From positions 2,040,443-2,104,442 of the forward strand of contig CP070630.1 in the NCBI GenBank assembly GCA_020356025.1: a stretch of 64,000 nt of DNA, in the 5' to 3' direction. The stretch is from Dehalococcoidia bacterium (lineage in GTDB: Bacteria > Chloroflexota > Dehalococcoidia > SM23-28-2). Shown here piece by piece: positions 46,646 through 63,374 of the stretch (the first letter of the stretch is position 1; each line of letters starts with the position of its first letter). A program made the position numbers and the translations under genes. Below the pieces are notes generated by a model. It had not been told where the DNA came from, searched no databases, and saw only the letters and a list, made by a program, of their open reading frames with translations.

Positions 46646-46702
46646 TGGAGCGGGAGACGGGAATCGAACCCGCGACAACCTGCTTGGAAGGCAGAAGCTC
46701 TA
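46646..46702 (-). pseudogene. 3' fragment (57 nt) of tRNA-Gly(TCC); probable att site
   Basis: TAGAGC, anticodon arm TCTGC-CTTCCAA-GCAGG, T-arm GGTTCGATTCC, CTCCCGCTCCA end; the 5' acceptor strand and most of the D-arm are replaced by unrelated sequence. Confidence 0.85.
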
Positions 46703-46894
46703 TCGGGGGGCGATCCGTGCCAGCAGGCGTCCCGGATTGGCAATCGCGGCGGCGCGGCCGCAGCGGTAGCGCCGCATCCCTGTCTTGATGAAGGTGAGAG
46801 CCATGCTAGGTGTCCACCAAGAACTGCTCACACACATTGCGGAAGTCGTTGAACACCCGCAGCGTGTGCGGACAGGCTGACTGACAGGCCGCGT

Positions 46895-48124
46895 TTACTG
46901 CTTGCGCTGCAGGCGATAGACGGCATTCGCAAACGTCAAAGTCACCACTTTACCGTCTGCCAACTCGCCGAATGAGGCAATAGGCTGCCCTGTCTCGGCG
47001 AGAAGAACTGGCAGGCTGTCATCAGCCGTGTTCGTGGCCCAAATGCGGCCGCTACAGAAGTCGCCGTAGACGTACCATCCATTCAGCTCAGGCATTGAGG
47101 CACCCCGGTAGACGTACCCACCGGTCACCGAGCACCCGGTATCGTGGCCGTAGACAGCTCGCGGCATTTGCAGCCCGCTCTTGTCGCAGTCCGGCGAGAG
47201 GAAGCACTCCAAGCCCTCCATGACGTTCCAGCCATAGTTCCCACCGGGAACGATGTGATTTACTTCCTCCCACCTGTCCTGTCCCACGTCCGCAGCCCAA
47301 AGCTCGCCGCTAGCCCTGTCGAAGCTAAAGCGCCAAGGGTTGCGCAGGCCGTAGGCATAGATCTCCGGGCGGGCATCAGCCATCGCCACGAATGGGTTGT
47401 CCGCTGGAGCCACATAGCCCTCGCCGGAGACATCCAGCCGGAGTATGGAGCCGAGGAGAGTCGAGAGGTTCTGAGCGTTGCCCTGTGGGTCACCAGCGGA
47501 GCCGCCATCGCCAACCGCGACGTACAGGTAGCCATCCGGCCCGAATGCCAGCTGCCCGCCGTTGTGATTACCGAAGGGCTGGGGGACCTCCAGAAGAACG
47601 TGTTCGCTCTCCGGGTCTATCGCTCCGTCAACAACCTGGAACCGTGACAGGACGCTGCGCCTGGGGTCGCCGGCCGCATAGTAGAGGTACACCCGCCCGT
47701 CCACCGAGAAGTCCGGCGAAAACGCCAACCCAAGGAGGCCTTCCTCGTTACCCGGGCTCTTGATCAGCCGGTCCGACATGTCGCCAAAGATGGTGGGACT
47801 GGAGTCACCTTCCACCGAACCCCGCCAAATCATCCCACCTTGAGTGACGAGTACCGCCTCCCCCTCGCTGCCAGGTATCGTAGAGAAGCCCAACATGCGG
47901 TCAAACGTAGCCCAGTCTAGAGCGGGGGCGAGTTCGTAGGCCTCCTCGACCGGGTGGGAGGGCGTGGCCGTCGGCTCTGGCGTCGGCGAGAACTCAGCGA
48001 CCACGGGCGACGGTGTGGGCGTCGGCTTGGGCGATGCCTCCTCCTCGCCGCCTTCGCAGGCTGGCACGAGCACCACCAGGCAGATCCCAAAGCTAAAAAC
48101 CATCCTCAAGGACGACCCCTTCAT
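46895..48124 (-). CDS. PQQ-dependent (glucose/sorbosone) sugar dehydrogenase lipoprotein
   Basis: EEGLLGLAFSPDF, NHNGGQLAFGPDGYLY, YAYGLRNPWR, GGNYGW, SVTGGYVY. Confidence 0.9.
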   Translation of the reverse strand: MKGSSLRMVFSFGICLVVLVPACEGGEEEASPKPTPTPSPVVAEFSPTPEPTATPSHPVEEAYELAPALDWATFDRMLGFSTIPGSEGEAVLVTQGGMIWRGSVEGDSSPTIFGDMSDRLIKSPGNEEGLLGLAFSPDFSVDGRVYLYYAAGDPRRSVLSRFQVVDGAIDPESEHVLLEVPQPFGNHNGGQLAFGPDGYLYVAVGDGGSAGDPQGNAQNLSTLLGSILRLDVSGEGYVAPADNPFVAMADARPEIYAYGLRNPWRFSFDRASGELWAADVGQDRWEEVNHIVPGGNYGWNVMEGLECFLSPDCDKSGLQMPRAVYGHDTGCSVTGGYVYRGASMPELNGWYVYGDFCSGRIWATNTADDSLPVLLAETGQPIASFGELADGKVVTLTFANAVYRLQRKQ

Positions 48125-48421
48125 TTTGATGCCTCCCTACTAGGTGTCCGCCTTCACTCGATGTGTGCGGTATCCTACTCGCAGGCGCACACCGGGGGCG
48201 CTCAAGCGGGAGCGGCGACTACCACCCACCTGGCCCAACGCAGCTTCACCGGAGCTTACACCGGTGAGCGGCACCGCCAATGACCTCCGGCGCTCCGGGT
48301 GCAAGCTATCTCTTACCGTGGAATAGCTCGCTGCCCGCTCCAGGGTACACAATGCGCTGAGTCTTCGGGGTGAGCCGTATGACATCTGGCCACTTGCCCG
48401 ATTCGCTCTCCCCCTTAGGCA

Positions 48422-49270
48422 CTAGCGCCGCTGTATTCGACCGGCTGCGAAGGCGCCGATACCGCCAGCCAACACCAGAGCGGCAAGGCCGGCGCCGATG
48501 GCTACCAGCCACGCGGTGGAATCCGAAGAGTCGCCCACGGGACCGCCGCCGGCCGTCGGAACGACGGTCGGGGTCGCAATGGGCGAGGGGGTCGGCACGA
48601 AGCTCGCGTCCGCCGTCAGCTTCGCGTTGAGGGCCGGCTGCCCCTCGAGCAGCCCGACCGCGAAGGCGGTATACACTGTGCCCTCCTCCAGCATGATGCC
48701 GGGAAGGTTCAGCGCCACGGTCTCTGTTCCGGCCGCCCGCACCTCAAGATCGTACGTGCCAGCCGGTAGGTTGAGATAGCCGCTGGCGTCCTTGAACGCT
48801 GCGTTGGGCACTACGACACCTGCGCCCTCGGCATAGATGTCCACGGCCGGAGCGTCTGGGGAAGCGTGAACGAAGCGAAGCTTGGACTCGCCGTCCGCCG
48901 GAGCACTGTTGTCGTCCACCAGAACCAGTGGCTCGATCTCCGCCAGAAGGCCAACAGCTGCCACAGTGTAGTCGGTGTCAGCGGACAGCGTCACGTCGGC
49001 GCTTATGAGCGGGTCGCCCGTGCCGTCGGCGGAGGCCGCGAAGACATCAACCGTGTGATCGCCGGCCGGGACGGACACGTAGTCGGTGATGTCGTCGAAG
49101 GCGAGGTCACTGATGGCCTCCGAGCCGTCTAGAAAGATGTCTACCGCCGGGGCATCGGGAGAGGCGTGCAGAACCCTGATGCGGGCCCCGTCCTCCTCCG
49201 CCGCGGCCGTCGACAGAGTTGTCAGGACTCCCACGAACCCTGCAAGGAAACCTACTAGTAGCTTGTTCAT
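48422..49270 (-). CDS. DUF4397 domain surface protein with C-terminal TM anchor
   Basis: Two RVLHASPDAPAVD repeats; signal peptide; VPTAG then hydrophobic helix and RIQRR tail. Confidence 0.82.
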   Translation of the reverse strand: MNKLLVGFLAGFVGVLTTLSTAAAEEDGARIRVLHASPDAPAVDIFLDGSEAISDLAFDDITDYVSVPAGDHTVDVFAASADGTGDPLISADVTLSADTDYTVAAVGLLAEIEPLVLVDDNSAPADGESKLRFVHASPDAPAVDIYAEGAGVVVPNAAFKDASGYLNLPAGTYDLEVRAAGTETVALNLPGIMLEEGTVYTAFAVGLLEGQPALNAKLTADASFVPTPSPIATPTVVPTAGGGPVGDSSDSTAWLVAIGAGLAALVLAGGIGAFAAGRIQRR

Positions 49271-49647
49271 CTCTGAACTCCTCCTTCCCCCATTGCAGGG
49301 AGAGTGACCATTCCGATCGTCGGGAGGCCCTAGTCGTTTCTCACACCTAGGACCTGCGCAAGTCATTTCATAGGCAACCTCCGGGTCTTGGTAATCGGCA
49401 AGTTGGAACCAGCCGTTCTCTGTGCAAATCAGGCCCATTATAGGCTTGTGATCGCGCATCAGATCTGAGCTCCGATCGACTAACCTGAGGCCTTCTCAGA
49501 ACCGATCTCCCAGTTGACAGCACTCATGAGCACCACGTCCTTGACAACATTCAAGCGGGATTCCTCATATCAAGCAGCATCGCTGTCCTCATTCGGCGCC
49601 GAGTCGCGTGACGCTGCTAACGAAACCGCGAGCTTCTCCTTCTTCCG

Positions 49648-49890
49648 TCATTCCTCCGTTACCCGGGTGGGGGACTCCTCGGGTCGTCCCCACCGCCCGC
49701 GGGACAGCTCGGAGAGGGGGTCATCCTCCCACAACCAGCTGTGGGCCCAGTTGCGAAAGTCTTTCTGAGCCCCGCACAGCCTGCAAATGCCCATGCTGGT
49801 TGGGCCGTTGGGGCTTTCGATCAGCCAGTGATGGCGGCACTGAGTTTGAGCCGTCGCCCCTCTGGCCCGTTTGACTGCTACCTCACTCAT
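49648..49890 (-). CDS. Small putative Zn-binding protein (CxHxW...CxxC)
   Basis: CRHHWLIESPNGPTSMGICRLCG; GAGG RBS; 12 nt after the receiver gene. Confidence 0.7.
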   Translation of the reverse strand: MSEVAVKRARGATAQTQCRHHWLIESPNGPTSMGICRLCGAQKDFRNWAHSWLWEDDPLSELSRGRWGRPEESPTRVTEE

Positions 49891-49902
49891 CGTCTTCCTC
49901 GA

Positions 49903-50307
49903 CTACGGTTGTTGGGGCTCACCCTTTGCCAACAAGAGGTGCTTCAGCATCGCGACGAGCTCCCAGGGATCGAAGGGCTTGGTTAGGAAGTGATTCCCCA
50001 GAGGGCCATAACGCCTGGTCGCCTCGGCTCGGTCCAGGGCAGATATCACGACCCAGACGGGGGAGCTGCTTGCTGCCTCGTCGAGCTGACGAAGCCACTC
50101 CAGGACTGCGCCCCCCTTGCTGTCGGGAAGCTGGAGATCGAGAACCGCGGCATCTGGGGGTTGCTGTTTCAAAATGTGCAGGGCCTCGCCGCCTGTCGCC
50201 ACACCGGCGGTGTCAAAGCCTGCGTTACTCAAGGAAAAGCGCAGCATCCTCGTCACACTTTCGTCGTCCTCGATCACAAGGACCCTTCTACGGATATCGC
50301 TAGCCAC
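49903..50307 (-). CDS. Single-domain response regulator (CheY-like receiver)
   Basis: VLVIEDD, LDLQLP, ISA, FLTKPF; probable leaderless GTG at 50307. Confidence 0.85.
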   Translation of the reverse strand: MASDIRRRVLVIEDDESVTRMLRFSLSNAGFDTAGVATGGEALHILKQQPPDAAVLDLQLPDSKGGAVLEWLRQLDEAASSSPVWVVISALDRAEATRRYGPLGNHFLTKPFDPWELVAMLKHLLLAKGEPQQP

Positions 50308-50314
50308 GTTTGCC

Positions 50315-50388
50315 ATAGTAGATGCCAGCTGTGTAGAACGTGTGAATGTCCGAGCGGGCGGCGTGAAAAAGACGTGAATGTCGGCGGC
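50315..50388 (-). promoter_or_regulatory. Promoter with four TTCAC-type direct-repeat boxes and -10 TACTAT
   Basis: Boxes at 50331, 50342, 50363 and 50374 (spacing 11/21/11); same layout as 55755-55828. Confidence 0.7.
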
Positions 50389-50526
50389 TAGAGACAAGCG
50401 CCACGGCGAACCAGAGGCCCCAAGCTGTCGCGCCAGCCATGCCCTATGCAGGGCGCTTAGGGAGTCAGCGGGGCGACGCAGGGGGTGGCGAGAAGGGAAA
50501 GGAGAACCCCAGCCGTTCAGGGAGAG

Positions 50527-53292
50527 CTAGGGCTTGGGCATACGGTATCCGGCCTGCCGCTCGGTGAAGATAAATCGGGGGTGGTGGGCGTCATCACCCA
50601 ACTTACGGCGAAGATTGCGGATGAAGGAGCGCACGAGTTCGGTCTCGCCGCGGTACTCTTCTCCCCACACTTGCTGGAGAATCTGGTCATAGGTCAAGAC
50701 CCGCCCGGCATGGGTTGCCAGCTCGTACAGGATCTTGTACTCGGTGGCGGAGAGAGCGACCTGCTCGCTTGCCACGGTGACCCGCCGCTCTGCAAAGTTG
50801 ACTCTCAGATCACCCAGCACAAACGGCGGCCTCGCCTCCATCAGGTCGGGCAAGAGCCGCCGTCGCAGGGCTGCCCCAATACGAGCAAGCAACTCCGAGG
50901 GGGAGAAGGGCTTGGTAATGTAGTCGTCGGCCCCCATCCTCAGGGCGCGGACGGTGTCCTCCTCCCGATCGCTAGCAGTGAGAAAGATAACCGGCACCCC
51001 TGAGAACTCCCGGATGCGCCGGAGCAGGTCGAAGCCGCTGGTCCGGGGAAGCCTAAGGTCCAGCAGAACTAGGTCTGGCTCCTCCAACTCCATCAGTTTC
51101 GCGACCTCTGACGGGTTGCTGGTCACGATGGGCTGGTACCCCGCCTCGTCCAGGGAACGCTGGACATAGCGCAGCACCTGCGGCTCGTCATCGACGGCGA
51201 GCACGCGCGTCCTCTCACCTGCCCGCCGGACCCTCCCCAGGTGCACGGTCCTCCGAGTTTCGTCCGATAATGACTTGACACCGGTTTCGGCGGCTACCGG
51301 CAAGGTGAAACTGAAGGTGGAGCCTTGTCCCTCCCCAGGACTATCGGCCCGGATGCGCCCGCCCTGGGCCTCCACAATACCCTTGCAGATGGCCAATCCG
51401 AGGCCGGTGCCAGAAAGCTTTTGCCCGCCATCGTCGTGAACCTGCGAGAATTTCCTGAACAGAAGAGGCAGCTTCTCCCTGGGGATTCCGCGGCCCCGGT
51501 CTCGGACATGGATTGTGACCTGCAAGGGGTCGTGCTCCGCTGCTATGGTGATGGGCGCTGTTGCCGGAGAGAATCTGGCCGCGTTGTTGAGGAGGTTCGT
51601 CAGCACCTGAACGACCCTGTGCCGGTCTGCGTTGACAGCGGGGAGGTCGTCGGGTACCTCCAACTCGACCTGGTGACGGCCGCCGCTTCGCGCAAAAGTT
51701 GCCCGGGCTTCCTTGAGAACGTCCCGCAGATCGGTAGGTTCAGCGCCGATCGACAGGGAGCCAGCCTCGATGCGCGTCATGTCCAGGAGGTTGTCCACCA
51801 GGTCCCTAAGGCGGTCTGCTTGCTCGTCAATGATCTGAAAGAGTTCTCTATTCTCCTCGGGACTGAAGGGCCTCTGGCTGCCCAACGCCGTCGCTGCAGA
51901 CCCCTTGATTGCTGTGAGCGGTGTCTTCAGCTCGTGGGTGACCATGCCCAGGAATTCGCTACGGAGCTTCTCCAACTCCTCCTGGGCCCGCTTTCGCTCG
52001 GTGATGTCCAGGGTGTATTCGATCACCTGCCTGACATTTCCTTCGTGATCGAGAACCGGGTGGCAGTGGACTTCCACAGCGCGGTCATTGCCATCGGTAT
52101 CGCGGTGGATATGCTCGACCGTGACGGGCGCCTTAGTCTGCTTGACCACTTCGAGGGGGCAGACGTGTTCGTCGCCTTTACACGGCTCGGTCAGTCCATG
52201 GGTGAGCGCGTAACAGGTTGCGGCTTCCCGCAATCCGCCCCGACAAGCGGCTGCATTGGCCATCTTGATGGTATAGTCTTCGGCCTCTATCACATAGAAC
52301 GGGTGGCGAAGGGCGTCCAGGACGGCCTGAAGGAAGGCGCTATGCTCCCGGATTCTCTCCTGCGCCCGCCCGCGCTCGGTGACACGGCCCAGTCTCTCGG
52401 CAATGGCGTTGATCAGGTTTCGCTCTTCCTTTAGGAAGGGCCCCTCATCGCTCTTGGGCCTCTCCTCGAGATAGCAGACCTCCACAATGCCAAGCCGCTG
52501 CCCAAGCACGATGATGTCGGCTGTCTGCCTCCAGTTGCTTTCTCTGAAGTTTCCTGTCCTGAACTCTTGATCCTCCAGCATGATGCGGGCGCACGTCACT
52601 TCGGGGTACTGCCAGGCTGGGGGAATCAGTTCGACTGTCCCCTGGAGGAACTGTTCCAGCGAAAAATCGGCCCGCTCAACGAGACGGGAGATACCGTAGA
52701 GGCAGTTCAGTTCCTTGACGCGCTCGCTAAGATGGTGGGTCCGTTCGCTCAGCGCTTGCTCTGTCCGCGTCTTCTCTGTCACGTCGACGAGGGAGAGCAC
52801 AAGCCCTTGCATGGCCCCGGAGGCATCCGTGACGGGCGAAAGCGTCCAGTCCCAGTAAGTTACGCCGCGTTCTGGCTGGTCCGCGTATACGAAGGGCTTG
52901 GCGGTGTACTGGACCGCTTCCCCCGTGTCCCTCACCTTCTCGAATATGGCCCGGTTCTCGGGATCGGGGAACAAGGCGAAGTGATTCGTCCCGATGAGCT
53001 CTTCGGCCGTGTGGCCTGAACCTTTGGCGTAAGCAGAGCTGACCTTGATGAAGTTGAAATCAGTGTCTAGGTAGGCGATCTGTGCACTTGTGGTCTCCAT
53101 GATGACATCCAGCATGTCTCTCTCACGCTGGACGCTTGCGGCAAGCTGCTCCGTGTGGCTCTGCTCTCGACGCCGCCTAGCGAGGCGCGCGTCGTGACTC
53201 TCCCCGTGGCGCTGGGCCACTGTGTTCGGAGCCTTCTTTCGCTTCTTGTTCTTCACCATCACGTCCCGCTGACTGCAACTCGGGATAACCAT
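50527..53292 (-). CDS. Hybrid sensor-regulator: PAS, GAF-like, PAS, HisKA/HATPase, receiver, OmpR-type wHTH
   Basis: VTHELKTPL, NLLNNA, DRGRGI, GTGLGL, AVDDE, LLDL, YITKPF, KdpE-like C-terminus RKLGDD...TERQAGYRM; start 53292 or 53259. Confidence 0.9.
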   Translation of the reverse strand: MVIPSCSQRDVMVKNKKRKKAPNTVAQRHGESHDARLARRRREQSHTEQLAASVQRERDMLDVIMETTSAQIAYLDTDFNFIKVSSAYAKGSGHTAEELIGTNHFALFPDPENRAIFEKVRDTGEAVQYTAKPFVYADQPERGVTYWDWTLSPVTDASGAMQGLVLSLVDVTEKTRTEQALSERTHHLSERVKELNCLYGISRLVERADFSLEQFLQGTVELIPPAWQYPEVTCARIMLEDQEFRTGNFRESNWRQTADIIVLGQRLGIVEVCYLEERPKSDEGPFLKEERNLINAIAERLGRVTERGRAQERIREHSAFLQAVLDALRHPFYVIEAEDYTIKMANAAACRGGLREAATCYALTHGLTEPCKGDEHVCPLEVVKQTKAPVTVEHIHRDTDGNDRAVEVHCHPVLDHEGNVRQVIEYTLDITERKRAQEELEKLRSEFLGMVTHELKTPLTAIKGSAATALGSQRPFSPEENRELFQIIDEQADRLRDLVDNLLDMTRIEAGSLSIGAEPTDLRDVLKEARATFARSGGRHQVELEVPDDLPAVNADRHRVVQVLTNLLNNAARFSPATAPITIAAEHDPLQVTIHVRDRGRGIPREKLPLLFRKFSQVHDDGGQKLSGTGLGLAICKGIVEAQGGRIRADSPGEGQGSTFSFTLPVAAETGVKSLSDETRRTVHLGRVRRAGERTRVLAVDDEPQVLRYVQRSLDEAGYQPIVTSNPSEVAKLMELEEPDLVLLDLRLPRTSGFDLLRRIREFSGVPVIFLTASDREEDTVRALRMGADDYITKPFSPSELLARIGAALRRRLLPDLMEARPPFVLGDLRVNFAERRVTVASEQVALSATEYKILYELATHAGRVLTYDQILQQVWGEEYRGETELVRSFIRNLRRKLGDDAHHPRFIFTERQAGYRMPKP

Positions 53293-53306
53293 GGTTCTTA
53301 TTGTCG

Positions 53307-53315
53307 AGTATACCA
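53307..53315 (-). promoter_or_regulatory. Extended -10 promoter (TGgTATACT) for the hybrid kinase
   Basis: Overlaps the ORF-track start, so the true start is downstream. Confidence 0.45.
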
Positions 53316-53531
53316 CTAGCGAGGTAACGCTAGATACCGCCCGTCGTCAGCAGCTTTCGCGATCTGTACGAGCAGCCCTTAGTGGCCATTTCAAGGCTTG
53401 CTCTCGCTGCCCAGACGAAGGTCGGGTATCACCCGCGCGAAAGGACCGGTGAGCGCCCCAAGAGCGTTCAGCGGCACGAGTCGAGGTGCAGGCCAGGAGC
53501 GGAGAGACCTGGGAGCTGAGCCGCAAAAGGA

Positions 53532-53559
53532 AGAGAGCCGCGGCCGGCTGCGGCTCTCT
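53532..53559 (-). terminator. Intrinsic terminator after the multicopper oxidase
   Basis: 12-bp stem AGAGAGCCGCGG/CTGCGGCTCTCT followed on the minus strand by TCCTTTT. Confidence 0.7.
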
Positions 53560-53591
53560 CCCCGTTGCGTTTGGCCCGTATCAGGGTTTGC

Positions 53592-55553
53592 CTATGGCGC
53601 AACCGTGTACGGCCGCATCATCTCGTTGTCCTCGTGGTCGAGGATGTGGCAGTGCCAGACGTAGCCCGGGCCGGCCGTCGGGTCAAAGGGGAACGTGTTG
53701 ACTCCGGCACTCACGTTGTTGACCGGGACATCTTGCGGCGCCCACCGCACGACGATGCGGGTGACCTCGCCGGGGTACATGATGACGGTGTCCTTCCAGC
53801 CCGTTTCGTTGGCTGCCGGCGGCGCGGCCTTCCCCTGCAGGAAAGCACCTATGGCCGGGTTGCCGCCAACGGCGCCATCGGCGTTGGGGGTGTCATACGG
53901 CAGCGGGGGTCCAGCAGCAGGGTTGTAGACACCTCCGGCGAACGCCGCATCGTAGGCCTTCAGATACTTGCTCGCCTGGAATCCCTGGCGGCTGAGGACC
54001 TGGAACTGCACCAGGTGCAGGTGGATGGGGTGGGCGTCGCCCGTCAGGTTGATGACCTCCCACACCTCGGTCGAGCCGACCCGCGGCATCTCCGTTATCC
54101 CCGGCGCAGGAAGGCCCGACATGGTGCCGTCCCACTTGGTGTTGTTGAGCAGCGCCTCCAAGGGACCACCGGCACCCATGACCTCGTTGAGGGTCAATTG
54201 TCTGACTTGATCTGGCAGGATGGTGGTCACGGCCGGATCTAGGCCGACGATGGGGTTAGCGGGCCGCAGGCTGCCCGGGAGAGCGATCGCGGGGTTGTAG
54301 CTGGTGTCCGGGCCGCCTGTAGGGAAGCCCACCCGGAACTGCATTATCTGTCCGACCGTCTGTGGATCTGGCGTTGCCCCTTGCGGGAAGGGCGCCCGCG
54401 CGTTGTTAGTCATGATGAGCTTGGTTCCCGGCTTCACTTTCGCGAAGTCGACGATAACGTCAGCGCGCTCACCCGGCGCGAGGAGGAGCTTGTTGACCTC
54501 CACCGGCGTGTCGAGCAATCCGCCGTCGGTCCCGATCTGCCAGAAGGTCAGCCCTCTCGGCAGATTCAGTTCATAGAAGCGGGCGTTCGAGCCGTTCAAG
54601 AGGCGGAAGCGGTAGCGGCGCGGCTCCACATCCAGGTACGGCCAGGTCTTGCCGTTGACCACGATGGTGTCGCCCAGGAACTCCGGCTGCCAGAAGGGGT
54701 GCTCCGGGTTGAGAGCCGGCGCGTCCGGGAAGAGCCACTGACCGTTGGTATCGAACATGCGGTCCTGGATGACGATCTCCGCCTCTTGCTGTCCGCTGGG
54801 CAGGTTGGCAGGCTCATTCAGTGGATCCCTCAGCAAGTAGAAGCCCGCCAGGCCACCGTAGACGTTTAGTCGCGTGACGCCCAGAGCGTGGTCGTGGTAC
54901 CAGAGCGTGGCGGCTTCCTGGGTGTTGGGATAGGTGTATGTGTTCGTCACAAACCCGGGGCCTGTCTGCGCGAATCCGGGGGTGAACCACGAATCCGGGT
55001 GACCATCGAAGGCCGAAGGGACCTCCCCGCCGTGCAAATGGGTGACCGCGGGCACGGGGCCAGCGTAGGGGTCTACAAGGGGATCGCCCACTGGGCCGAT
55101 AGGATCGGCCCAGTGAAGGGTCTGGTCCACCGTGAGGTATTGCTGGAGCACGGGGTTCACCAAGTTGTTGAAGTAGGTGATCGTCGTGGGCACGCCGCGC
55201 TGCGCCTCAATCGTGTAGGCGGGATATAGAGGGCCGAAGGGAGTCGGGTTCCCGGCCTCGGTTATCTGGTAGCCCCAGACATATGTGCCCGCGTTATATG
55301 GAGCAGGCAAACCAGCGTAAGATGCCGCGGGAAGGACTTGCTGCTGGAACTCCTCCATTGTCACAGTTAGTGGCACGGTCCCATCGACCCTGTTGCCAGC
55401 AAACGTGGGCAGCGGATCCACGTATTTCGGGATGGCCCCCCCGGGAAGAGGAACCTGCGGAACCTGAACAGATGCGCCCGCCGTTGACCCGATGAACAGC
55501 ACCGTGAACAGCACAGCCACGGCTGCTGCGACTAGTAGAGCGCTCTTCTTCAT
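53592..55553 (-). CDS. Multicopper oxidase, CotA/bilirubin-oxidase-like, secreted
   Basis: HLHG, WYHDH, HPIHLH, WHCHILDHEDNEM; signal peptide. Confidence 0.95.
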   Translation of the reverse strand: MKKSALLVAAAVAVLFTVLFIGSTAGASVQVPQVPLPGGAIPKYVDPLPTFAGNRVDGTVPLTVTMEEFQQQVLPAASYAGLPAPYNAGTYVWGYQITEAGNPTPFGPLYPAYTIEAQRGVPTTITYFNNLVNPVLQQYLTVDQTLHWADPIGPVGDPLVDPYAGPVPAVTHLHGGEVPSAFDGHPDSWFTPGFAQTGPGFVTNTYTYPNTQEAATLWYHDHALGVTRLNVYGGLAGFYLLRDPLNEPANLPSGQQEAEIVIQDRMFDTNGQWLFPDAPALNPEHPFWQPEFLGDTIVVNGKTWPYLDVEPRRYRFRLLNGSNARFYELNLPRGLTFWQIGTDGGLLDTPVEVNKLLLAPGERADVIVDFAKVKPGTKLIMTNNARAPFPQGATPDPQTVGQIMQFRVGFPTGGPDTSYNPAIALPGSLRPANPIVGLDPAVTTILPDQVRQLTLNEVMGAGGPLEALLNNTKWDGTMSGLPAPGITEMPRVGSTEVWEVINLTGDAHPIHLHLVQFQVLSRQGFQASKYLKAYDAAFAGGVYNPAAGPPLPYDTPNADGAVGGNPAIGAFLQGKAAPPAANETGWKDTVIMYPGEVTRIVVRWAPQDVPVNNVSAGVNTFPFDPTAGPGYVWHCHILDHEDNEMMRPYTVAP

Positions 55554-55754
55554 TGGTCGTCTCCTTCCTTCAGTTCTTCAATGCTCTGCGCCGTCAGCAA
55601 TAGGCCGTATCCATAGGCACCTCCCCACTCCATCAGTCATCTCCACTCGTGCTTCCCTTATCCAGATGGGATTTCCCATCGCCATCGCTCTTCTCTCTCG
55701 GCGAGCCGGAGAGAAGGGACTGTACTGCGCTCGAGCCCTCTAGGGTTGAGGTTC

Positions 55755-55828
55755 ATGTTAGATGGCGGTTGTGAAGAGCGCGTGAACAGGGGAGCGGGCG
55801 GCATGAAAAAGGCGTGAATGCCGGGGGC
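55755..55828 (-). promoter_or_regulatory. Promoter with four TTCAC-type boxes and -10 TAACAT
   Basis: Boxes at 55771, 55782, 55803 and 55814; offset of 5440 bp from the 50315 copy for every element. Confidence 0.7.
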
Positions 55829-56138
55829 CACTCAGTGGCTACGGGGGGTGCTAGGCCGAAGGTCGCAGGGCGGGGTCGCTGTCTGCGAGCAGCTCCAGAG
55901 GGCCGGGTGGGATTCGAGGGGGCCATACGCGATGGGCATTTGTGTGGGAGGTGGGGATGGCAGGCGAACCGCTGTGGGCAGTGCAGAAGCTGGTACCTGT
56001 AACTGCATCGCCAGGGCGAGCGGCACGACGGTGGTGACGAGCAGGGGGATAGGGAAGCGGCGGTGGCCTGATGCTTGGCGGCTTCACTCGAGCGGATGAA
56101 GTGGACGGACCTGGCTTTGTGGCAACAGAGCTCGCGCG

Positions 56139-59100
56139 TCAGCGGATAAGATTAAACGTCCAGGTGGCTCCTTCCTCCTTGGTCACTAGCGCAAGTACAG
56201 ACGTTAGGTGAGCCAGATCGCTAATGGTGGTGATGTCAGGGCGGCCAAGGGCGTAGCGGTGCCACAACTGGTCGCTGCCCAGAGCGTAAAGGATGTTGAG
56301 TTCGGTGCTTATGGTAGCGGAGGCCTCGTCTACTGGCTCGGTCAAGCCCACGTAGCACACGCTATTCCAGCCCATCACTAGATCGGCGCTGGTGGGGGAC
56401 ATGGCGGATACATCCTGAACCCAGGAGGCGTCGCCGGCCATGAGAACGAAAAAAGACTCGAATGGGTTGACCGTGGTGATCGTGCTGACTTCGGGCCTGT
56501 CGGCGAACCAGCGGTCGTAGCCGCCGTCGTCCCGGAGGCGGTAGACGGCCAGCACTTGGCTCACGATGGGCTCCAAAGCCGCGTCGATACCCTGCTGTGA
56601 TCCGGCGTAGCAGGCATGGTTCCAGCCAGCCGCCAGACTCAGGGCACCTACGACATCGACGATATCGTGACCACGGAAGGGCGTGCCGTCCTGAAGGCTC
56701 CCGACGATTGTCGCCGTCACCAGGTTGGGAGAGGTGGGCAGGGCGGAGATGAAGCTCGGCCCGTCGAAGGTCAGCTCTAGGTCGGCAAGTCCGTCTTCGT
56801 CGAAGTCGCCAACGGTGGCCTGGGTCGGCGATAGGGTTGCCTCTCCCACCAGAAGGTCGAGGCTATCGGTATCTACCTCATTGACATCGTGCCCGAAGGG
56901 CAGCTCGGTATAGGCGGTGACCGTTGACGGCGGCTCGGGACTGGCCAGGTTGAGCGCATCGGGCTTCACATCTACAAGTGTGGTAATGCCTACGAAGATG
57001 CGAACGCTGGCCGAGCCCTGCTGCCCGTCGGAGTCAGTGACCTTCAGGGTGATGGTGTGCCACCCAGGCGATAGATCGGCTACCAGTCCCGCCGGGCCGT
57101 CAGCGATTTGGCCGTCCCGATCCGAAGACCAAATGTAGGCTTCCGACGGCAGGCCTCCGTCCTCCTTGTCTGCCGCTGACCCCATCAGCGTCACCGCGTC
57201 CCCTATCTGATACTCAGAGTTATCTTCAGGCGAGAAGATGGTGGGCACGGGTGGCTTGGTGGCGACTTGGAAGTGGCCGCTGTCGCCCGTGCTTGAGTTG
57301 CCGGTGTTGTCGGTGGCGATGACCCGGTAGAAGGCATCGTTGCCGCCGGGCAGGTCATCTACGTTGGCCTGATAGGTGGTCTCGGAGATGTTGGCCACGA
57401 TGGGGAAGAAATTGGCGCCGCCATCCCAGCTGTAGAGAAGGGTGAAGAGAAGAGGATCGCCGTCGGGGTCCTCGGCCTGCCACTGCACGGTCTGGTTGCC
57501 GCTGAGGAGGCCGCCATCGGCAGGCGCGGTGACCTCGACGGTGGGCGCGTTGGCGCTAACGTCCACCGAGTCCAAGACCTCCGTGCCGTGACGCAGGACG
57601 ATGCGGTCGGTTCCCTCCACCCAGGCCAGAACGACGCTGAAGGGGGATGGCTCGGGCATAGTCGGCACCTCGAGCAATTCGAAGTTCACGTCGAAGCAGT
57701 GGCTGCCGACAACAGTTCCTTCGTCCTCCAGTTCGACGCAGTACTCCCCTTCGCCAATCGGATCAGGAGTACCGTCCATTACGCGGTACAAGGTGGAGAT
57801 GTTTCCCGTAGCGTCGGGATTGACTACCCCGGCTACGAAGACCGACTCTACGCCATTCACAGCGACAGTGATGCTCTCAGCCGAACCCCCGGCGATGGAG
57901 CCGATAGCGACAGCATTGCCCTGCCAGCAGGACTTGGCAGTAGCGCTGTTGGGCGAAAGAGCGCAGAACAGCTGCTGGTAGGTATAGGGACTGACCCAAC
58001 GCACGTCGTTGGCGTTGGTCTGCACGGTGAAGCCGCAGTGGCCACCCTGCATCATCTCCGTCTGAGTTGAAGGATGAGCGACAGCCGATGGGAGAGGAAT
58101 CGGGAAAATCCCCGCCACCAGTATGGTAAGGTCTGTCTCTATGCCCGTCTCCTGGATATCATAGTCAAGGCCGACCGCACCAGCGCCGGTGTAAGGCCAG
58201 TCCGGGTCGTCCGCGAAGCCTCCGGTGCAGGGGTGGCGACGGCCTAGGTTGTGGCCGATCTCGTGGGTCATGACCATCGACCGGTTGCCGGCAACGGTCC
58301 AGCCCACGTCCACGATACTCGCTATTCCCTTCCCTCCGTTCCAGATCGGGTTGGAGACGCCGTTGTTGAAGCCGGTGGCGCCAGGCACGAACACCACAAC
58401 CTGGTCAGGGGGGCTAACATACCCGAAAGTGTAGAGGAGATTGGCTTCCGCTATGACATCCGGCCAGCTGAAGCTCTTTTTCCAGTCAAACAATGATCCT
58501 ATTTCATAGACAACGGGGTCCCAGTGGGACACAGGAAAAGTCCTCACCAGCCAGAATACTTGGTTCTTCACGTCGGCGGTGGAGACTGAGCCGCCACCGC
58601 CGCCGGGGGGATCGTAGTTCATTCTCGCGGCATAGATATGGGGTGACTCGCGCTCGTACACCTTAAGGTCAAGGGTGCCGCTGGCCGGGGCGACGTTATT
58701 GGTGTCATCTTGCTCAACAAGGGTGTCATCGGGGTTCACCTCGGCCTGGAAGCTGAGCACATCGTCGGCCGCGCATTCCTTGCAGAGAAGCACGAAGTTG
58801 GCGCTGCTGTTGATGTTGTCCCTTATGAGGGCTTGCGTGGCCGTGGTCGTGCCGTTCATGGTCAGCCACGAAGTGCCATTGCGGGAAACCTTGAGGCGGA
58901 CGGGCACGTTCTGGATGGCGGCCGACGTGCCGGAGGCCACATAGACGCGCACCCAGGTGAACCTGCCCGCCACCAGCGGGAGTTGGTTGTCGGCGCAGGC
59001 GGTGTCGCCGGTTGTGTTGTCCAGGCACTGCTGGGCTTGAGTGACCTCTATGGCAGCAATGGTGTAGTCAGGGGTTGGCGCGATGGACTCGGTCGGAGGC

Positions 59101-59696
59101 GGAGCGAACATAGGGTTCGCTGCTTTGGGGAAGCCGGGCCCGACAATGGCTATCTTGGGCGTGGGCGTTGGCGTTGGCGCCGGCACGGGGGTGGGGGTAG
59201 GGGTAGGGGTAAGCGTCGGCTCTGGGACGCCGAAAGCGGCTGTCTTGTAGTACCAGGTCTCGTCCAGGGAGTACCACCAGCAGACGGTCACCGTATGGTC
59301 ACCGGGCTCGGCATGCTCCGGCACCATGGCGTCTATGCGTCCCGCGCTCTCGTACTCGGGCACGGCACCACTGCCGATGAGCGTGCCTCCCGAGGCGGGG
59401 TCCCAGTCCCAGAGTGCCTCCGCTGGCTGGTCATCGTAGTCGTTCGGCTCGATACTGGACAGCTCGACTTGAAGCGATGAGCCGGGAGGGCCTACCTCCG
59501 GGATGAGGGTGACGACGGCTTCCGGCAACGGTTGCAGGAAGCCGTAGGCGCCGCATTGCACCTCTCCTAGAGCTTGAGCTGGTGGGTCGGCCAGGCGTTG
59601 AGGGATGGAGGTCAAGGCGAGAGCCAAGACAAGGGCCATGCCTGTCATTGCCAAGATGGCAAGAGCGTGACGGGAACCGAGTCTCCACACTTTCAT
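56139..59696 (-). CDS. Large secreted multidomain zinc metalloprotease (metzincin-type)
   Basis: Signal peptide, TP linker, HEIGHNLGRRH, Ig-like domains, GDFDEDG Ca motif, tandem C-terminal repeat. Confidence 0.8.
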   Translation of the reverse strand: MKVWRLGSRHALAILAMTGMALVLALALTSIPQRLADPPAQALGEVQCGAYGFLQPLPEAVVTLIPEVGPPGSSLQVELSSIEPNDYDDQPAEALWDWDPASGGTLIGSGAVPEYESAGRIDAMVPEHAEPGDHTVTVCWWYSLDETWYYKTAAFGVPEPTLTPTPTPTPVPAPTPTPTPKIAIVGPGFPKAANPMFAPPPTESIAPTPDYTIAAIEVTQAQQCLDNTTGDTACADNQLPLVAGRFTWVRVYVASGTSAAIQNVPVRLKVSRNGTSWLTMNGTTTATQALIRDNINSSANFVLLCKECAADDVLSFQAEVNPDDTLVEQDDTNNVAPASGTLDLKVYERESPHIYAARMNYDPPGGGGGSVSTADVKNQVFWLVRTFPVSHWDPVVYEIGSLFDWKKSFSWPDVIAEANLLYTFGYVSPPDQVVVFVPGATGFNNGVSNPIWNGGKGIASIVDVGWTVAGNRSMVMTHEIGHNLGRRHPCTGGFADDPDWPYTGAGAVGLDYDIQETGIETDLTILVAGIFPIPLPSAVAHPSTQTEMMQGGHCGFTVQTNANDVRWVSPYTYQQLFCALSPNSATAKSCWQGNAVAIGSIAGGSAESITVAVNGVESVFVAGVVNPDATGNISTLYRVMDGTPDPIGEGEYCVELEDEGTVVGSHCFDVNFELLEVPTMPEPSPFSVVLAWVEGTDRIVLRHGTEVLDSVDVSANAPTVEVTAPADGGLLSGNQTVQWQAEDPDGDPLLFTLLYSWDGGANFFPIVANISETTYQANVDDLPGGNDAFYRVIATDNTGNSSTGDSGHFQVATKPPVPTIFSPEDNSEYQIGDAVTLMGSAADKEDGGLPSEAYIWSSDRDGQIADGPAGLVADLSPGWHTITLKVTDSDGQQGSASVRIFVGITTLVDVKPDALNLASPEPPSTVTAYTELPFGHDVNEVDTDSLDLLVGEATLSPTQATVGDFDEDGLADLELTFDGPSFISALPTSPNLVTATIVGSLQDGTPFRGHDIVDVVGALSLAAGWNHACYAGSQQGIDAALEPIVSQVLAVYRLRDDGGYDRWFADRPEVSTITTVNPFESFFVLMAGDASWVQDVSAMSPTSADLVMGWNSVCYVGLTEPVDEASATISTELNILYALGSDQLWHRYALGRPDITTISDLAHLTSVLALVTKEEGATWTFNLIR

Positions 59697-60256
59697 AGCT
59701 GAACCTCCACCGCTGTTCTCCCCGACGTGCCAATGGCCGGCGACTTGGATAAGGGAGACACGCTTCGTGGGACTTCGCCTTTCTTCAGATCGGGTCGAAT
59801 CATGCCAGGAAGTCTAGCAGGCGTCAAGGCGCACCGGTAGCTCCCTCCTACGAGCACCCACAAGGGTTGGAGGGAACAAGCTGGGGATGTGCCAAAAGGC
59901 ATGACTGCTAGCGGTCTAAGGCGAATGCTCTGGACGTCAGTCCTCGGCGAGGGGATAAGGGGATAAGAACATAAGCTCTGGCGACCCCGAGGGGATTCAG
60001 AGTCCACACGTAACAGCGATAGCAGAGGTGATTGCCGCCGGAGCAGCGCTGGTGAGGGCGTGATGAATGAGCACGCGCTAAGCACCCTGTAGATACGCTA
60101 GGTCCAAATGAGTGATAGGTCATCGTACCTAGTCTGCTATTGACACCATTGATCTGGACACAGCCGGGATGTGAGAATGACACGGTGGGGAAAAGGGGCT
60201 TAGTCACCAACATCTAGACCCTAATCAGTAGACATCTCTAGGAGTCGAGATTCGAT

Positions 60257-60427
60257 ATGGAAAACGTCATCTTCATAATTCTCGGCCCGGCGTTGATTGC
60301 GGGCGGCATCGTTGCGTATCGCGGGAGCGGGTGGGTTTACGTGCGGGCACTCGGTGCTGCCGCCACTACGGCGGGAGTTGTCATGTTCCTCATAGGTCTA
60401 GTCAACGCTTTATCAGGCACGGCCTAG
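60257..60427 (+). CDS. 56-aa two-TM membrane protein (below the ORF-track cut-off)
   Basis: MENVIFIILGPALIAGGIVAYRGSGWVYVRALGAAATTAGVVMFLIGLVNALSGTA*; AGGAG upstream. Confidence 0.5.
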   Translation: MENVIFIILGPALIAGGIVAYRGSGWVYVRALGAAATTAGVVMFLIGLVNALSGTA

Positions 60428-60729
60428 GCCCTCAAACGCATACGCGTGAGGCTGCAGACTGCATCTAAGGCCCCCAGCCCAATAGCCACTACACCCTTTA
60501 TCACCCCGTTCCCTACACGCATTGTCTGACAACCAGACGATATTACCGCCTATGCCCTAAGCCCTTGATTGCTCATTGCAGGCCGCCAACGGGAGCGTGT
60601 AAAACCCCCATATGCATCCGTAGGGGTGATGGTGCTGTTCTGTGCTACCCCCCTTTTGCTCGCCAGGCAGCGGTCACGTCACCGAGGCCAGAGGATGACG
60701 AACCGCGCGATGGCCTTGACCAGCGGGCT

Positions 60730-60767
60730 CTACGGCGCGATGGTCATGCTGCAGCTCACGGGGGCCG
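60730..60767 (-). repeat. Duplicated 3' end of the edge ORF (remnant)
   Basis: 33/38 identical to 63519-63556; reads APVSCSMTIAP* versus APVSCSMAIVP*. Confidence 0.75.
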
Positions 60768-60907
60768 ACTGGCAACGGGGTGAGCGGTAGCTGTTGCCCG
60801 TTGTCGCCTGGCCGCGACCAATATTCACCCCCTTCTAACCTTCGTGCTCCTGGTTTTCACTGATCCCTAGGCTTCTTCCGGCGATAATGTCCCCAAAGGA
60901 GGCGAGA

Positions 60908-61363
60908 GTGCGGCTACGCAAGAAGAACGAGCCGAGCGATCAGCCCGAGGATGAGGACCTCACGGATGAGCTGCTGGAATGGGCTAGGGCCAGAGGAGTG
61001 GTTGTCCCCGAGACCATGCCAGACACGATGGAACCTTCCCAAGGGACGAAGTCTGAGCCGGAACTCCATCCGTCCGGCTGGGAGAGCGTGCCCAGCGGGG
61101 TTGAGACCGCTGCGCCGATCAAGCCCCAACAGCAGCCTAAGATCTTGGTAGTAACTCTTGACGAGAGCGCTACAGACCGGGCCCAGGCCTACTTGTTCGA
61201 TGACACCCAAGGGGCGAGTCAGTTCATCGAAACCCTCGTGAAGACCGGCCTCAATCCGGACCGCATCATCGCCATCTGGGCCACGCCGATGTACTTCAAC
61301 GTGACCTGCGGCCTCGTGGTCACCACCGGCGAACCCGAGCTGCAGCCGACGGTATCTAGTTAG
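60908..61363 (+). CDS. Hypothetical protein
   Basis: Open frame 60887-61363; GGAGG RBS before GTG 60908; acidic N-terminus and an ordered-looking C-terminal domain. Confidence 0.6.
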   Translation: MRLRKKNEPSDQPEDEDLTDELLEWARARGVVVPETMPDTMEPSQGTKSEPELHPSGWESVPSGVETAAPIKPQQQPKILVVTLDESATDRAQAYLFDDTQGASQFIETLVKTGLNPDRIIAIWATPMYFNVTCGLVVTTGEPELQPTVSS

Positions 61364-61382
61364 CAACCCCAGCCAGGGGCTG

Positions 61383-63374
61383 TCACTGCGATCGGTATAT
61401 CACTCCAACTCCGCCCAAGTGGACCTCGCTGCCGTCGTAAAGGGGGCGACGCTGTCCCTTCCGTAGGGTGTAGTCGTCCACTACGATATCAGTCGCCGAA
61501 ACCGCCTCCAGGAGGCACTCCCCGTTCCTGCGCGGAATGATGCGGGCCGATCGCCCGGCAAGGCCCAGATCCATGTCGTCATGCGGGCCCCCCAAGGTTA
61601 GTGGCCGCCGCCACCAAGTGCGACAGTGCCGCCCTTCGAGATCGTAGGCTCGTCCCTCTGGCACCGACGTCAAGTAACCGCGCAGAGTGGGGCGTCCGAA
61701 GTGGGCATAACCTGCCCAGGACACGGTCAACGCGGCCAGGAGCGCGGGACCCAGGATCAAAACCAGCGTGGGGCCCCCACCGCCGTTCCCGCCGGCCGTC
61801 GGGACCGCGACGGGCACCGGAGTGGGCGGTGGCCCCGCAGAGGGCGAAGGTGCGTCGACCTGCGCCGCCGATAACGACGTCTCAAAGCTGCGACGGGCTA
61901 CCACTCCTTCCTCCGTCTCTGCCACCAAGGCGATGCTGTACCTCCCCTCTACTCCGCTCACCGCAACCGTCCCGACGTACTCCCCCGATCCCACCGGTTG
62001 AAGGGCCCCTTCATTGGACCGCCCATCCGGCTCGGTGACTGTAACAGCCACCGTAGCATCCTCCACCGGCCTCTCCTCCTCCGTCTGGGGGTCGCGAGCG
62101 GTGAGCCGGACGGCAACTTCCAGCGGTGCACCAGACCCTAGATTCAGCAAGGGCGGCGGGCGCAGCCAGACCACCTCCAGCAGCGTCCGCGGCGTCGACG
62201 AGATAGTCAGGCAGGACTCGCCTTCAGTCGGTCCCGCTATCGTCACCGTCCAAGTTCCCCTCGGTGGCTCCTCAATGCTGAAGGCGTCGTAGCGAGCGTC
62301 GGTTCCCGCGGGGGCAACCGGCTCACCACCGGGGTCAGCCACCATCACCGCCGGCCGTAGGTCACTGGGGTAGGTCACGAACAGTGAGAGCGTGGAAACG
62401 AACGAGTGGACGGGAAAGGTCACAGATCTCTCCTCGCCGGGAGCCAGGCAATCGCTGAACAGGACTTCGAACACGTCCAGCTTCTTAGCGGCGAAAATCT
62501 CCTGGAACACCAGCGTCAGTTCGCTGGCCTCTGGCGCCTCGCGGTACAGCCCGCCACCGTTCTCTGCCAGCTTCTGCAGAAACTCCGACTCCACGGCGCT
62601 GGCCAGGGAAACCGGAAAGAGGCCCCACTTCCTCTCTCCGAAGCTGGCCGCCAGGGCAAGCACCGCGTTCCGCTCTGCTTCCTGCTTCTGGGCCGAAAAG
62701 TTGGGCCAGTCAGGCGGGTGGAGCTCCCCATCCGTCAGGAATATGGCGAAGCGGATGGAGTTGGAGCCCTTCTCTAGCTCCTCCAGCCCCGTCTCCAGAC
62801 CGGTCCGCATGTTTGTGTTGCCCGCTGGGGCCAGTGGCCTCAGCCGCACCTTTATGGACTCCTTAGTCGTCACGTCCGTCACCCTCGTCAGCGGCACCAG
62901 CACGATACTGTCGTCGGCGAACAGAACCACGCTCATCTCGTCCCCGTCCTCCAGTAGGTCCACCAGCTGGCTGGCCGCCGCAAAGCGCAGGCTGGCGGGG
63001 TCGGTCTGGGCCATGCTCCCTGAATTGTCGATCACGAGAACGACGGCGTTGTGCGGCGGCCCTTGGGCGCCCGCCGGCAGGATGGATAACGAAGCAAGAG
63101 CGATTAACGCAGGAAGGGAGAGGGAGAGCGCACGAAACATCAGCCGTAGCGCCTTGATCGCCCTAGGGTTAGATCTTGCGGGTCCCGGTGGCGTTGTCCT
63201 CTCTCTCAAACGGATGTTGCCCACTTGTCCACCTGGGCGTAGTTGTGCATAGTGCGCTCTTGGGCCTCGGGAAGACCTTGCTCTATCGCTCGGGTAAGGG
63301 CTAGCAGTCCTGGAACAAGCACCACTGCCAGCAGTAACAGAACGAGCTTGGCTATCATGCTGCGCATGATTCAC
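61383..63374 (-). CDS. vWA-domain membrane protein with a C-terminal FHA-like domain
   Basis: MIDAS DNSGS, T, LTDG; signal-like segment from Met 63140 (alternative start); Pro linker, TM helix, FHA-like tail. Confidence 0.75.
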   Translation of the reverse strand: MNHAQHDSQARSVTAGSGACSRTASPYPSDRARSSRGPRAHYAQLRPGGQVGNIRLRERTTPPGPARSNPRAIKALRLMFRALSLSLPALIALASLSILPAGAQGPPHNAVVLVIDNSGSMAQTDPASLRFAAASQLVDLLEDGDEMSVVLFADDSIVLVPLTRVTDVTTKESIKVRLRPLAPAGNTNMRTGLETGLEELEKGSNSIRFAIFLTDGELHPPDWPNFSAQKQEAERNAVLALAASFGERKWGLFPVSLASAVESEFLQKLAENGGGLYREAPEASELTLVFQEIFAAKKLDVFEVLFSDCLAPGEERSVTFPVHSFVSTLSLFVTYPSDLRPAVMVADPGGEPVAPAGTDARYDAFSIEEPPRGTWTVTIAGPTEGESCLTISSTPRTLLEVVWLRPPPLLNLGSGAPLEVAVRLTARDPQTEEERPVEDATVAVTVTEPDGRSNEGALQPVGSGEYVGTVAVSGVEGRYSIALVAETEEGVVARRSFETSLSAAQVDAPSPSAGPPPTPVPVAVPTAGGNGGGGPTLVLILGPALLAALTVSWAGYAHFGRPTLRGYLTSVPEGRAYDLEGRHCRTWWRRPLTLGGPHDDMDLGLAGRSARIIPRRNGECLLEAVSATDIVVDDYTLRKGQRRPLYDGSEVHLGGVGVIYRSQ

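Follow-up and report, generated by a model that had tools for sequence, protein, structure and literature searches.

The window analyzed here, a 64,000-nucleotide stretch of contig CP070630.1 from a Dehalococcoidia bacterium, contains a gene for a two-component regulator in which sensor kinase, receiver, and DNA-binding output are joined in a single polypeptide. On either side of this gene lies a copy of a 75-bp element in which four TTCAC-like boxes precede a -10 hexamer. We consider it likely that these sites are activator-dependent promoters of a small regulon, controlled most plausibly by the adjacent soluble protein with its PAS-HisKA-HATPase-REC-wHTH architecture (REC, receiver; wHTH, winged helix-turn-helix). 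The case is carried by the rarity of the element in its own genome, by its conservation with a fixed geometry beside orthologous regulators, and by its co-occurrence with the regulator family across the class.

Twin promoters flank the regulator gene

The two copies, promoters A and B, align without gaps and are identical at 58 of 75 positions (77%). Their similarity ends sharply at both edges, and together they form by far the longest direct repeat of the region. In window coordinates, their parts are as follows:

50314-50388, minus strand: promoter A, with boxes TTCAC (50378-50374), TTCAC (50367-50363), TTCAC (50346-50342), and TACAC (50335-50331)
50320-50315, minus strand: -10 of promoter A, TACTAT, with a predicted start at 50308/50307
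55754-55828, minus strand: promoter B, with boxes TTCAC (55818-55814), TTCAT (55807-55803), TTCAC (55786-55782), and TTCAC (55775-55771)
55760-55755, minus strand: -10 of promoter B, TAACAT, with a predicted start at about 55748/55747

Promoter B repeats the layout of promoter A with a displacement of +5440. An earlier, sequence-only reading had described cores (50335-50388 and 55775-55828) that match at 43 of 54 positions, each with four minus-strand TTCAC-like boxes spaced at 11/21/11 bp and then 10 nucleotides (nt) ending in CATC ahead of TACTAT or TAACAT. Our recount gave the same identity, and the start-to-start spacing, the CATC ending, and the hexamers were all as described in both copies. 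Read on the minus strand, A and B share unit 1 (CATTCACGyCT), unit 2 (TTTTCAyGCCG), a 10-nt spacer (CCCGCTCnnn), unit 3 (yrTTCACrCGy), unit 4 (TCTwCACArCy), and 6 nt ending in CATC, after which comes the -10. Each promoter can be described as two pairs of 11-bp direct repeats with the consensus yaTTCACgnnT cTTCACrnn. The centers of the two pairs are 32 bp apart, or about three helical turns, which would place both pairs on the same face of the DNA.

With a start taken 8 nt past the -10, the proximal pair would reach from about -41 to -20 and the distal pair from about -73 to -52, so that the proximal pair sits where the absent -35 element would be. No -35 hexamer was found at a usable distance: the hexamers at a 16-18-nt spacer are ACACGT, ACGCGC, and ACGCGT, none of them like TTGACA, and box 3 (TTCACA) is 20 nt from the -10. 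An extended -10 (TGn) is absent from all three promoters of this kind in the genome, and a scan with the generic sigma-70 consensus called no promoter at either A or B. Upstream of the regulator gene itself (53317-53591), which we checked for autoregulation, there is no box.

The element is rare in its own genome

The source genome is a 2.175-Mb metagenome-assembled genome (MAG; 63% G+C, 83% complete) made up of 139 contigs joined by runs of 100 N. When the 58 positions shared by A and B were slid over both strands of the 2.17-Mb sequence, the background peaked at 34-35 of 58, A and B scored 58, and one additional site stood out:

Genome 896436-896510 (L001:6436-6510), plus strand: third four-box promoter, with 48 of the 58 shared positions, outside the window

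This third site has four perfect TTCAC boxes in identical phasing, keeps the GCCCGCTC spacer, and carries TAGGGT at the -10 position. With a 22-nt matrix built from the six half-sites, only those six reach 27-33 bits, and the next best sequence reaches about 20. The composite score, which requires two half-sites 32 nt apart, is 53.7 bits for A, 55.4 for B, and 59.3 for the third site; the next position in the genome scores 11.4, and the reversed matrix gives 8.7 bits at most. Chance similarity of A and B is excluded. A genome-wide scan had been proposed in the sequence-only reading, whose count of two promoters has to be raised to at least three.

Just 25 nt separate the third site from a contig end, and its target gene is consequently missing from the assembly. 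Attempts to extend it revealed no overlap with other contig ends, and an exact 51-nt search of the metagenome contigs came back empty. Two relatives (G010 and G011, introduced below) carry the element ahead of a gene for an extracytoplasmic function (ECF) sigma factor; no ortholog of that gene was found in the present genome, where the best match has 32% identity.

Boxes and spacing are conserved in relatives while spacers diverge

Among the 40 nearest genomes, a strict IUPAC pattern with one mismatch allowed returned a single extra site, in G010. This pattern proved too strict and was replaced by a matrix and by a sequence-only covariance model. The regulator is patchily distributed among these genomes, with orthologs in G010 (79% identity), G011 (73%), and G035 (60%), and the matrix found four-box sites beside the regulator in exactly these three. 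Nine genomes of the same genus have neither a regulator ortholog nor the motif. The sites are placed as follows:

G010 and G011: one site upstream of the orthologous receiver-only gene and a second upstream of an ECF sigma factor gene
G035: a single site, upstream of the orthologous receiver-only gene

All three genomes keep the boxes, the 11/21/11 phasing, and a -10 that begins six nt past unit 4. The spacers between the pairs are unrelated to one another (tccgccgggg, ctccttgggt, cctagcctca, and others). Judged from these alignments, boxes that are kept while spacers diverge form a phylogenetic footprint.

A wider sample points in the same direction. Searching GTDB species genomes with the four aligned regulators yielded 80 loci (1.18 Mb), most of them from Dehalococcoidia, SAR202, or Chloroflexota MAGs, with distant matches in Acidimicrobiia and elsewhere. 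In this sample the composite matrix exceeded 18 bits at 35 sites when the half-sites were offset by 32 nt. Neighboring offsets of 28-36 gave 0-3 sites, an offset of 43 (one more helical turn) gave 6, and the reversed matrix gave none. Furthermore, 30 of the 35 sites have TANNNT exactly 6 nt beyond unit 4, and it is seen almost nowhere else. Since the -10 had been left out of the matrix, its fixed position is independent evidence for a promoter of fixed geometry. The 11-bp direct repeats had been called typical of OmpR/PhoB-family sites in the sequence-only reading, and the 11/21/11 arrangement is now seen in the genome's own three sites and in the 35 from relatives.

The motif tracks the regulator family

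We searched one set of 301 Dehalococcoidia genomes both with the covariance model (sequence only, 30 sites) and with the kinase-receiver-wHTH part of the protein. For the counts, the source genome was excluded (leaving 300 others), a close ortholog was defined by 60% identity or more, and a motif match by E <= 0.01. The motif was present in 17 of the 18 genomes with a close ortholog and in 18 of the 282 without one (Fisher p = 3.4e-17); at a motif threshold of E <= 1e-5, the counts were 13/18 and 6/282 (p = 1e-14). In G011, G288, G187, G308, G097, G284, G276, and G073, the best or a strong motif match lies no more than a few hundred bases 3' of the regulator stop codon. Two further genomes contain the same system in divided form:

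L118 (G250:C5), 3549-5434: a PAS-kinase gene and a REC-wHTH gene, adjacent, followed by a four-box promoter and a receiver-only gene
L119 (G192:C7), 3391-5339: a PAS-kinase gene and a REC-wHTH gene, adjacent, followed by a four-box promoter and a receiver-only gene

A motif in G049 abuts a match of 40% identity that is interrupted by one stop codon, a locus most simply read as split genes. Because split systems keep the motif, it follows the REC-wHTH lineage, and the one-polypeptide form is a derived fusion. The extra helical turn between the presumed dimer sites predates the fusion, since split systems have it too.

The regulator is a soluble one-polypeptide system

The gene between the two promoters encodes the following product:

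50527-53316, minus strand: one-polypeptide two-component regulator of 929 amino acids (aa), with PAS, an unnamed module, a Cys/His-rich PAS_4, HisKA, HATPase_c, REC, and Trans_reg_C (Pfam)

As anticipated from the sequence alone, the protein ends in an OmpR-type wHTH, recognized as a receiver domain (Response_reg, E = 1.5e-28) followed by Trans_reg_C (E = 1.2e-22). These C-terminal 230 residues form an ordinary OmpR/PhoB module whose best PDB matches are MtrA, KdpE, RegX3, and PhoP (E about 1e-39). Across the four orthologs, H461 in the H-box, D709/D710, D753, T780, K802, and the recognition helix ELVRSFIRNLRRKLG are invariant, and by this comparison the phosphorelay residues are intact. No membrane segment was detected in the regulator, for which the maximum 19-residue hydropathy is 1.26, and the protein is predicted to be soluble. 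The reading frame is free of stop codons across residues 440-929 here and in over 100 homologs. The fused design is also widespread, with a match at E <= 1e-70 in 94 of the 301 class genomes, often as several intact paralogs in each.

The input region varies between orthologs. Residues about 195-305 (52402-52732, minus strand) make up a module of about 110 aa (LNCLYGIS...WQYPE..CARI...EGPFLxEE) without a Pfam match. A 256-residue region that takes in this module and the next PAS domain is matched by more than 6000 database proteins of widely differing output, among them HisKA and HisKA_3 kinases, sigma-54 activators, GGDEF/HD-GYP proteins, and kinase-REC-GerE fusions. Conservation of the module is strong in 83 homologs aligned over the whole region, and it looks like an uncatalogued sensor domain. 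The PAS_4 domain that follows (residues 333-443; 51988-52318, minus strand) contains C368, H373, C379, C386, H402, H404, and H417, each present in about half of the 83 homologs, which points to a PAS subtype rich in Cys and His that may carry a metal or a redox cofactor. In the nearest orthologs (G010, G011, and G035), another kind of PAS domain takes its place. The sensor module is also shared by one-polypeptide systems of the NarL type (HisKA_3-HATPase-REC-GerE; P0048, P0050, P0070, P0096, P0115, P0117, and P0123), so fusion of a whole pathway into one soluble chain has arisen with more than one output family.

Predicted regulon across genomes

Judged by position relative to the motif, the stand-alone receiver gene is the most conserved predicted target. 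In other genomes, the genes lying immediately behind motif sites are these:

Receiver-only gene: 7 loci and the split systems
Tandem Usp proteins: 4 loci, plus G104 and G288
Hsp20: 3 loci, plus G288
ECF sigma factor: 2 loci
Fe/Mn superoxide dismutase, immediately behind the receiver gene: G010
Carboxymuconolactone-decarboxylase/AhpD-like protein, PNPOx-like protein, pyridine-nucleotide disulfide oxidoreductase, AHSA1, ABM monooxygenase, and a pyrroloquinoline quinone (PQQ)-type dehydrogenase: G187
Tat-signal molybdopterin oxidoreductase, cupredoxin/multicopper protein, and short-chain dehydrogenase/reductase: G104

From this gene content, the regulon probably serves a redox, oxygen, or general stress response. 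No phosphate gene is among the targets annotated in five genomes. A pstS gene was not found in the present MAG, which is 83% complete; the only PF12849 match is a ModA/TupA-like gene. The sole PBP_like_2 gene (17398-18243, minus strand) sits behind a ModE-like winged-helix open frame (18300-18650, minus strand) and looks like it encodes a molybdate or tungstate binding protein, not PstS.

Proposed mechanism and competing explanations

We infer binding by the regulator, activation as opposed to repression, the kind of signal, and the role of the receiver, and these can be assembled into the following scheme. The cytoplasmic PAS modules would sense a signal that is probably redox or oxygen related, and the kinase core would phosphorylate the receiver domain of its own protein. 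The two winged helices of one kinase dimer could then take one box pair head to tail, so that two dimers would fill the four boxes. The proximal dimer would recruit RNA polymerase, replacing the contact that sigma region 4 otherwise makes with a -35 element. Finally, the stand-alone receiver would likely serve as a competing phosphate acceptor that provides negative feedback.

Several observations weigh against this reading. G061, a genome with close orthologs, has no detectable motif. Conversely, six genomes have strong motif matches without a close fused ortholog; G250, G192, and G049 are accounted for by their split systems, but G043, G162, and G247 are not, although G162 and G247 hold paralogs at about 52% identity and some of the G247 matches lie near them. 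The genome encodes other OmpR-type regulators, with at least five REC-wHTH genes besides this one. The proximal unit ends 6 nt from the -10, closer than in the classical pho box. Lastly, the spacer between the pairs (GCCGCCCGCTC) is identical in A and B and one base off at the third site, which suggests that the promoter was copied within this lineage; the mutual similarity of the three sites would then partly reflect recent copying and not selection.

An argument can be made that the boxes are operators and that the regulator represses, occluding about -41 to -20 and -73 to -52 and leaving the genes on when it is unphosphorylated. The closeness of the proximal unit to the -10 would suit such a role, and proteins in the OmpR/PhoB family can repress too, as illustrated by the PhoP repression complex (PMC11825685). 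Yet the three promoters, lacking both a -35 hexamer and an extended -10, should be weak without an activator. The proximal dimer is also placed as it is at promoters where a regulator box replaces the -35 element (PMC10570014, PMC11825685). Moreover, polymerase contact requires the fixed distance to the -10 that is seen in 30 of 35 sites, and occlusion would not. We therefore regard repression as unlikely.

A second alternative is that another OmpR-family regulator, for example one for phosphate or general stress, binds the sites and that the fused regulator is a passenger or a co-regulated gene. Candidates exist among the other REC-wHTH proteins of the genome, and TTCAC-type 11-bp repeats resemble the boxes of actinobacterial PhoP, MtrA, and KdpE. 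Nevertheless, the motif is distributed with the fused regulator or its split ortholog and not with genome lineage, it immediately adjoins the regulator gene in many genomes, and the targets are not phosphate genes. In addition, the nine same-genus genomes that lack the motif have ordinary OmpR-type regulators. Control by some other family member is, on this evidence, quite improbable.

The last alternative, a recent neutral duplication of intergenic DNA with no regulatory role, could draw on the spacer that A, B, and the third site share and relatives do not keep, and on A/B mismatches that are not clearly concentrated outside the boxes (2/20 core positions and 13/46 others), but the possibility raised in the sequence-only reading that the similarity is a duplication not conserved in relatives is contradicted, because the same boxes, phasing, and -10 distance recur beside orthologous regulators in dozens of genomes with unrelated flanks and diverged spacers; there is no sign that the sites are a mobile repeat, and we give the duplication next to no credence.

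Comparison with known systems

Activation by the adjacent fused regulator, the reading we favor, has clear precedents. Tandem OmpR-family dimers that replace the -35 element are already known: the activation complexes of PmrA, GlnR, and PhoP have tandem dimers in place of the -35 contact (PMC10570014, PMC10235972, PMC11825685). Four GlnR protomers occupy the sites a1-b1-a2-b2 (PMC10235972), and PhoP binds as dimers, tetramers, and hexamers (PMC11825685). The PhoB pho box, the PmrA box, and the mycobacterial PhoP PHO box resemble the element described here in that a dimer binds head to tail on 11-bp direct repeats (PMC10570014, PMC11825685; Blanco et al. 2002, as cited there). They also resemble it in that the proximal site replaces the -35 upstream of a recognizable -10, with extra upstream dimers possible. 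In those systems, however, the dimer sites are contiguous, whereas here they are one extra helical turn apart (11/21/11). The presumed binder here is fused to its own kinase, and where those boxes serve phosphate or polymyxin-resistance genes, the predicted targets here are genes for stress and redox functions.

GlnR-dependent promoters of actinobacteria with four sites offer another parallel, having four 5-nt boxes, four protomers, and a poor -35 (PMC10235972). All GlnR sites are six bases apart (11/11/11), whereas the middle interval here is 21 nt and the half-site offset peaks at 32, not 22. GlnR is an orphan regulator and is not phosphorylated by a fused kinase (PMC10235972). In the hybrid two-component systems (HTCS) of Bacteroides, as in the present protein, kinase, receiver, and DNA-binding output reside in one chain with intramolecular signaling (PMC11253607). 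In contrast, HTCS are membrane proteins with periplasmic glycan sensors and AraC-type output, unlike the soluble, PAS-based chain with an OmpR-type winged helix described here (PMC11253607). By analogy, the regulator would work like an HTCS without being a member of that family.

Two further systems deserve mention. At Escherichia coli torC, the tor boxes of TorR are four direct repeats with TTCAT to which an OmpR-family regulator binds, and the proximal box lies close to the -35. TorR differs from the system described here in box spacing, organism, and regulon, and it is a separate protein fed by the TorS phosphorelay. The other is the DosR (DevR) dormancy regulon of Mycobacterium tuberculosis, whose activation complex has been described (PMC13486717). 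The likeness to DosR is functional only: across genomes, the predicted targets here take in Usp proteins, Hsp20, PNPOx-like enzymes, and nitrate- or nitrite-type oxidoreductases, with a cytoplasmic sensor kinase in control. DosR is a NarL-type protein that binds palindromes, and neither its DNA-binding domain nor its site is homologous to those of the present system.

Our literature searches returned nothing specific on this regulator family or motif in Dehalococcoidia or Chloroflexi. The 11/21/11 element, its tie to the fused-regulator family, and the predicted Dehalococcoidia regulon did not appear in the papers searched. Two features would depart from the established mode, namely, the extra helical turn between dimer sites and a binder that is part of a kinase dimer.

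Implications

The Dehalococcoidia, to which SAR202 and related groups belong, are abundant and for the most part uncultured, and to our knowledge almost nothing is known about gene regulation in the class. Our findings supply it with a concrete cis-element, together with a candidate binder, a start-site prediction, and a list of predicted targets across many genomes. That candidate binder comes from a large uncharacterized family of soluble one-polypeptide two-component systems. The regulon is now predictable from sequence alone in any Dehalococcoidia MAG, and a single protein with a single 75-bp DNA makes a simple in vitro system for a kinase-fused OmpR-type regulator.

A bolder interpretation is possible, and we offer it tentatively. 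The four-box element, the fused (or split) regulator, and the always-linked receiver might together form the master control of a regulon for hypoxia, redox, or general stress that extends across the class and is functionally akin to that of DosR, with a kinase dimer sitting on the promoter and the receiver draining phosphate as a timer. If so, the switch would govern 15 or more promoters in some genomes (Usp, Hsp20, ECF sigma factors, superoxide dismutase, AhpD-like proteins, PNPOx, nitrate/nitrite-type oxidoreductases, and multicopper oxidases), and sensing, phosphotransfer, and polymerase recruitment would all take place on DNA.

Genes and transcription units of the window

The receiver gene, a small gene behind it, the regulator, and the oxidase all lie on the minus strand. 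The sequence-only reading had predicted a receiver/Zn-protein operon and a multicopper oxidase as targets, and the genes downstream of the two promoters are indeed the receiver with a small Cys-rich gene and the oxidase. The features around them are listed here:

49903-50307 (open frame 49903-50316), minus strand: stand-alone receiver (REC-only) gene; Response_reg E = 4.2e-18
49648-49890, minus strand: small Cys/His protein of 80 aa (CxHHWLIESP...GxCxLCG), 12 nt after the receiver gene
46895-49459, minus strand: downstream genes, namely a DUF4397 protein (48422-49459) and a PQQ-type glucose/sorbosone dehydrogenase (GSDH; 46895-48124) (Pfam)
50507-50522, minus strand: terminator-like hairpin 3' of the regulator stop, upstream of promoter A
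53592-55553, minus strand: multicopper oxidase of 653 aa with a signal peptide, PhsA/CueO-like; three Cu-oxidase domains, with the NCBIfam PhsA/CueO match below cut-off
55554-55747, minus strand: predicted oxidase 5' leader of about 194 nt, in which GGAAGGAG, a good ribosome-binding site, precedes the ATG
53522-53569, minus strand: hairpin with 24-bp arms directly 3' of the oxidase stop (inverted repeat I2, 83% complementary), with a terminator-like site at 53549-53536

A stretch of 7 nt separates the -10 of promoter A from the GTG at 50307; in G010 and G011, the codon at that distance is ATG. In the receiver proteins of all three genomes, eight residues precede the conserved (I/V)L(I/V)xE(D) strand. 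The receiver mRNA is thus probably leaderless, beginning at GTG 50307. This interpretation places the start at 50307/50308 and excludes the in-frame ATG at 50316, a codon overlapping the -10. A start near 50308 had been proposed from the sequence alone, and the predicted leaderless GTG fits it, as does the ATG at equal distance in the orthologous promoters. More distant relatives have leaders of 30-70 nt.

The hairpin at 53522-53569 is likely a terminator that parts the oxidase transcript from the regulator gene. With the second hairpin after the regulator, the arrangement points to three separate transcription units. The oxidase leader gave no Rfam match, and its fold is no better than those of shuffled sequences (z = -0.32). 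No ortholog of the oxidase was found in the 40 nearest genomes, which suggests that promoter B reflects a recent, lineage-specific recruitment. On this comparison the receiver promoter is ancestral and the oxidase promoter a lineage-specific addition. The region 46646-64000, which includes the oxidase and regulator loci, behaves in such comparisons as accessory DNA, given that the 40 nearest genomes contain no ortholog of the oxidase and that nine same-genus genomes lack the regulator.

Behind promoter A, the small Cys/His gene is probably co-transcribed with the receiver gene. The DUF4397 and GSDH genes may be distal members of the same unit, and a GSDH gene is a direct motif target in G187. 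The gap of 190-375 nt behind the small gene makes their membership uncertain. The DUF4397 frame probably begins at Met64 (MNKLLVGFLAGF..., with a signal peptide), leaving about 375 nt of non-coding DNA, so that a promoter of their own is possible for DUF4397 and GSDH. The 80-aa protein has no Pfam or NCBIfam match. Its gene is absent from the orthologous loci of relatives, and it has two paralogs in the present genome, at 1591348-1591563 (61% identity) and 260319-260402.

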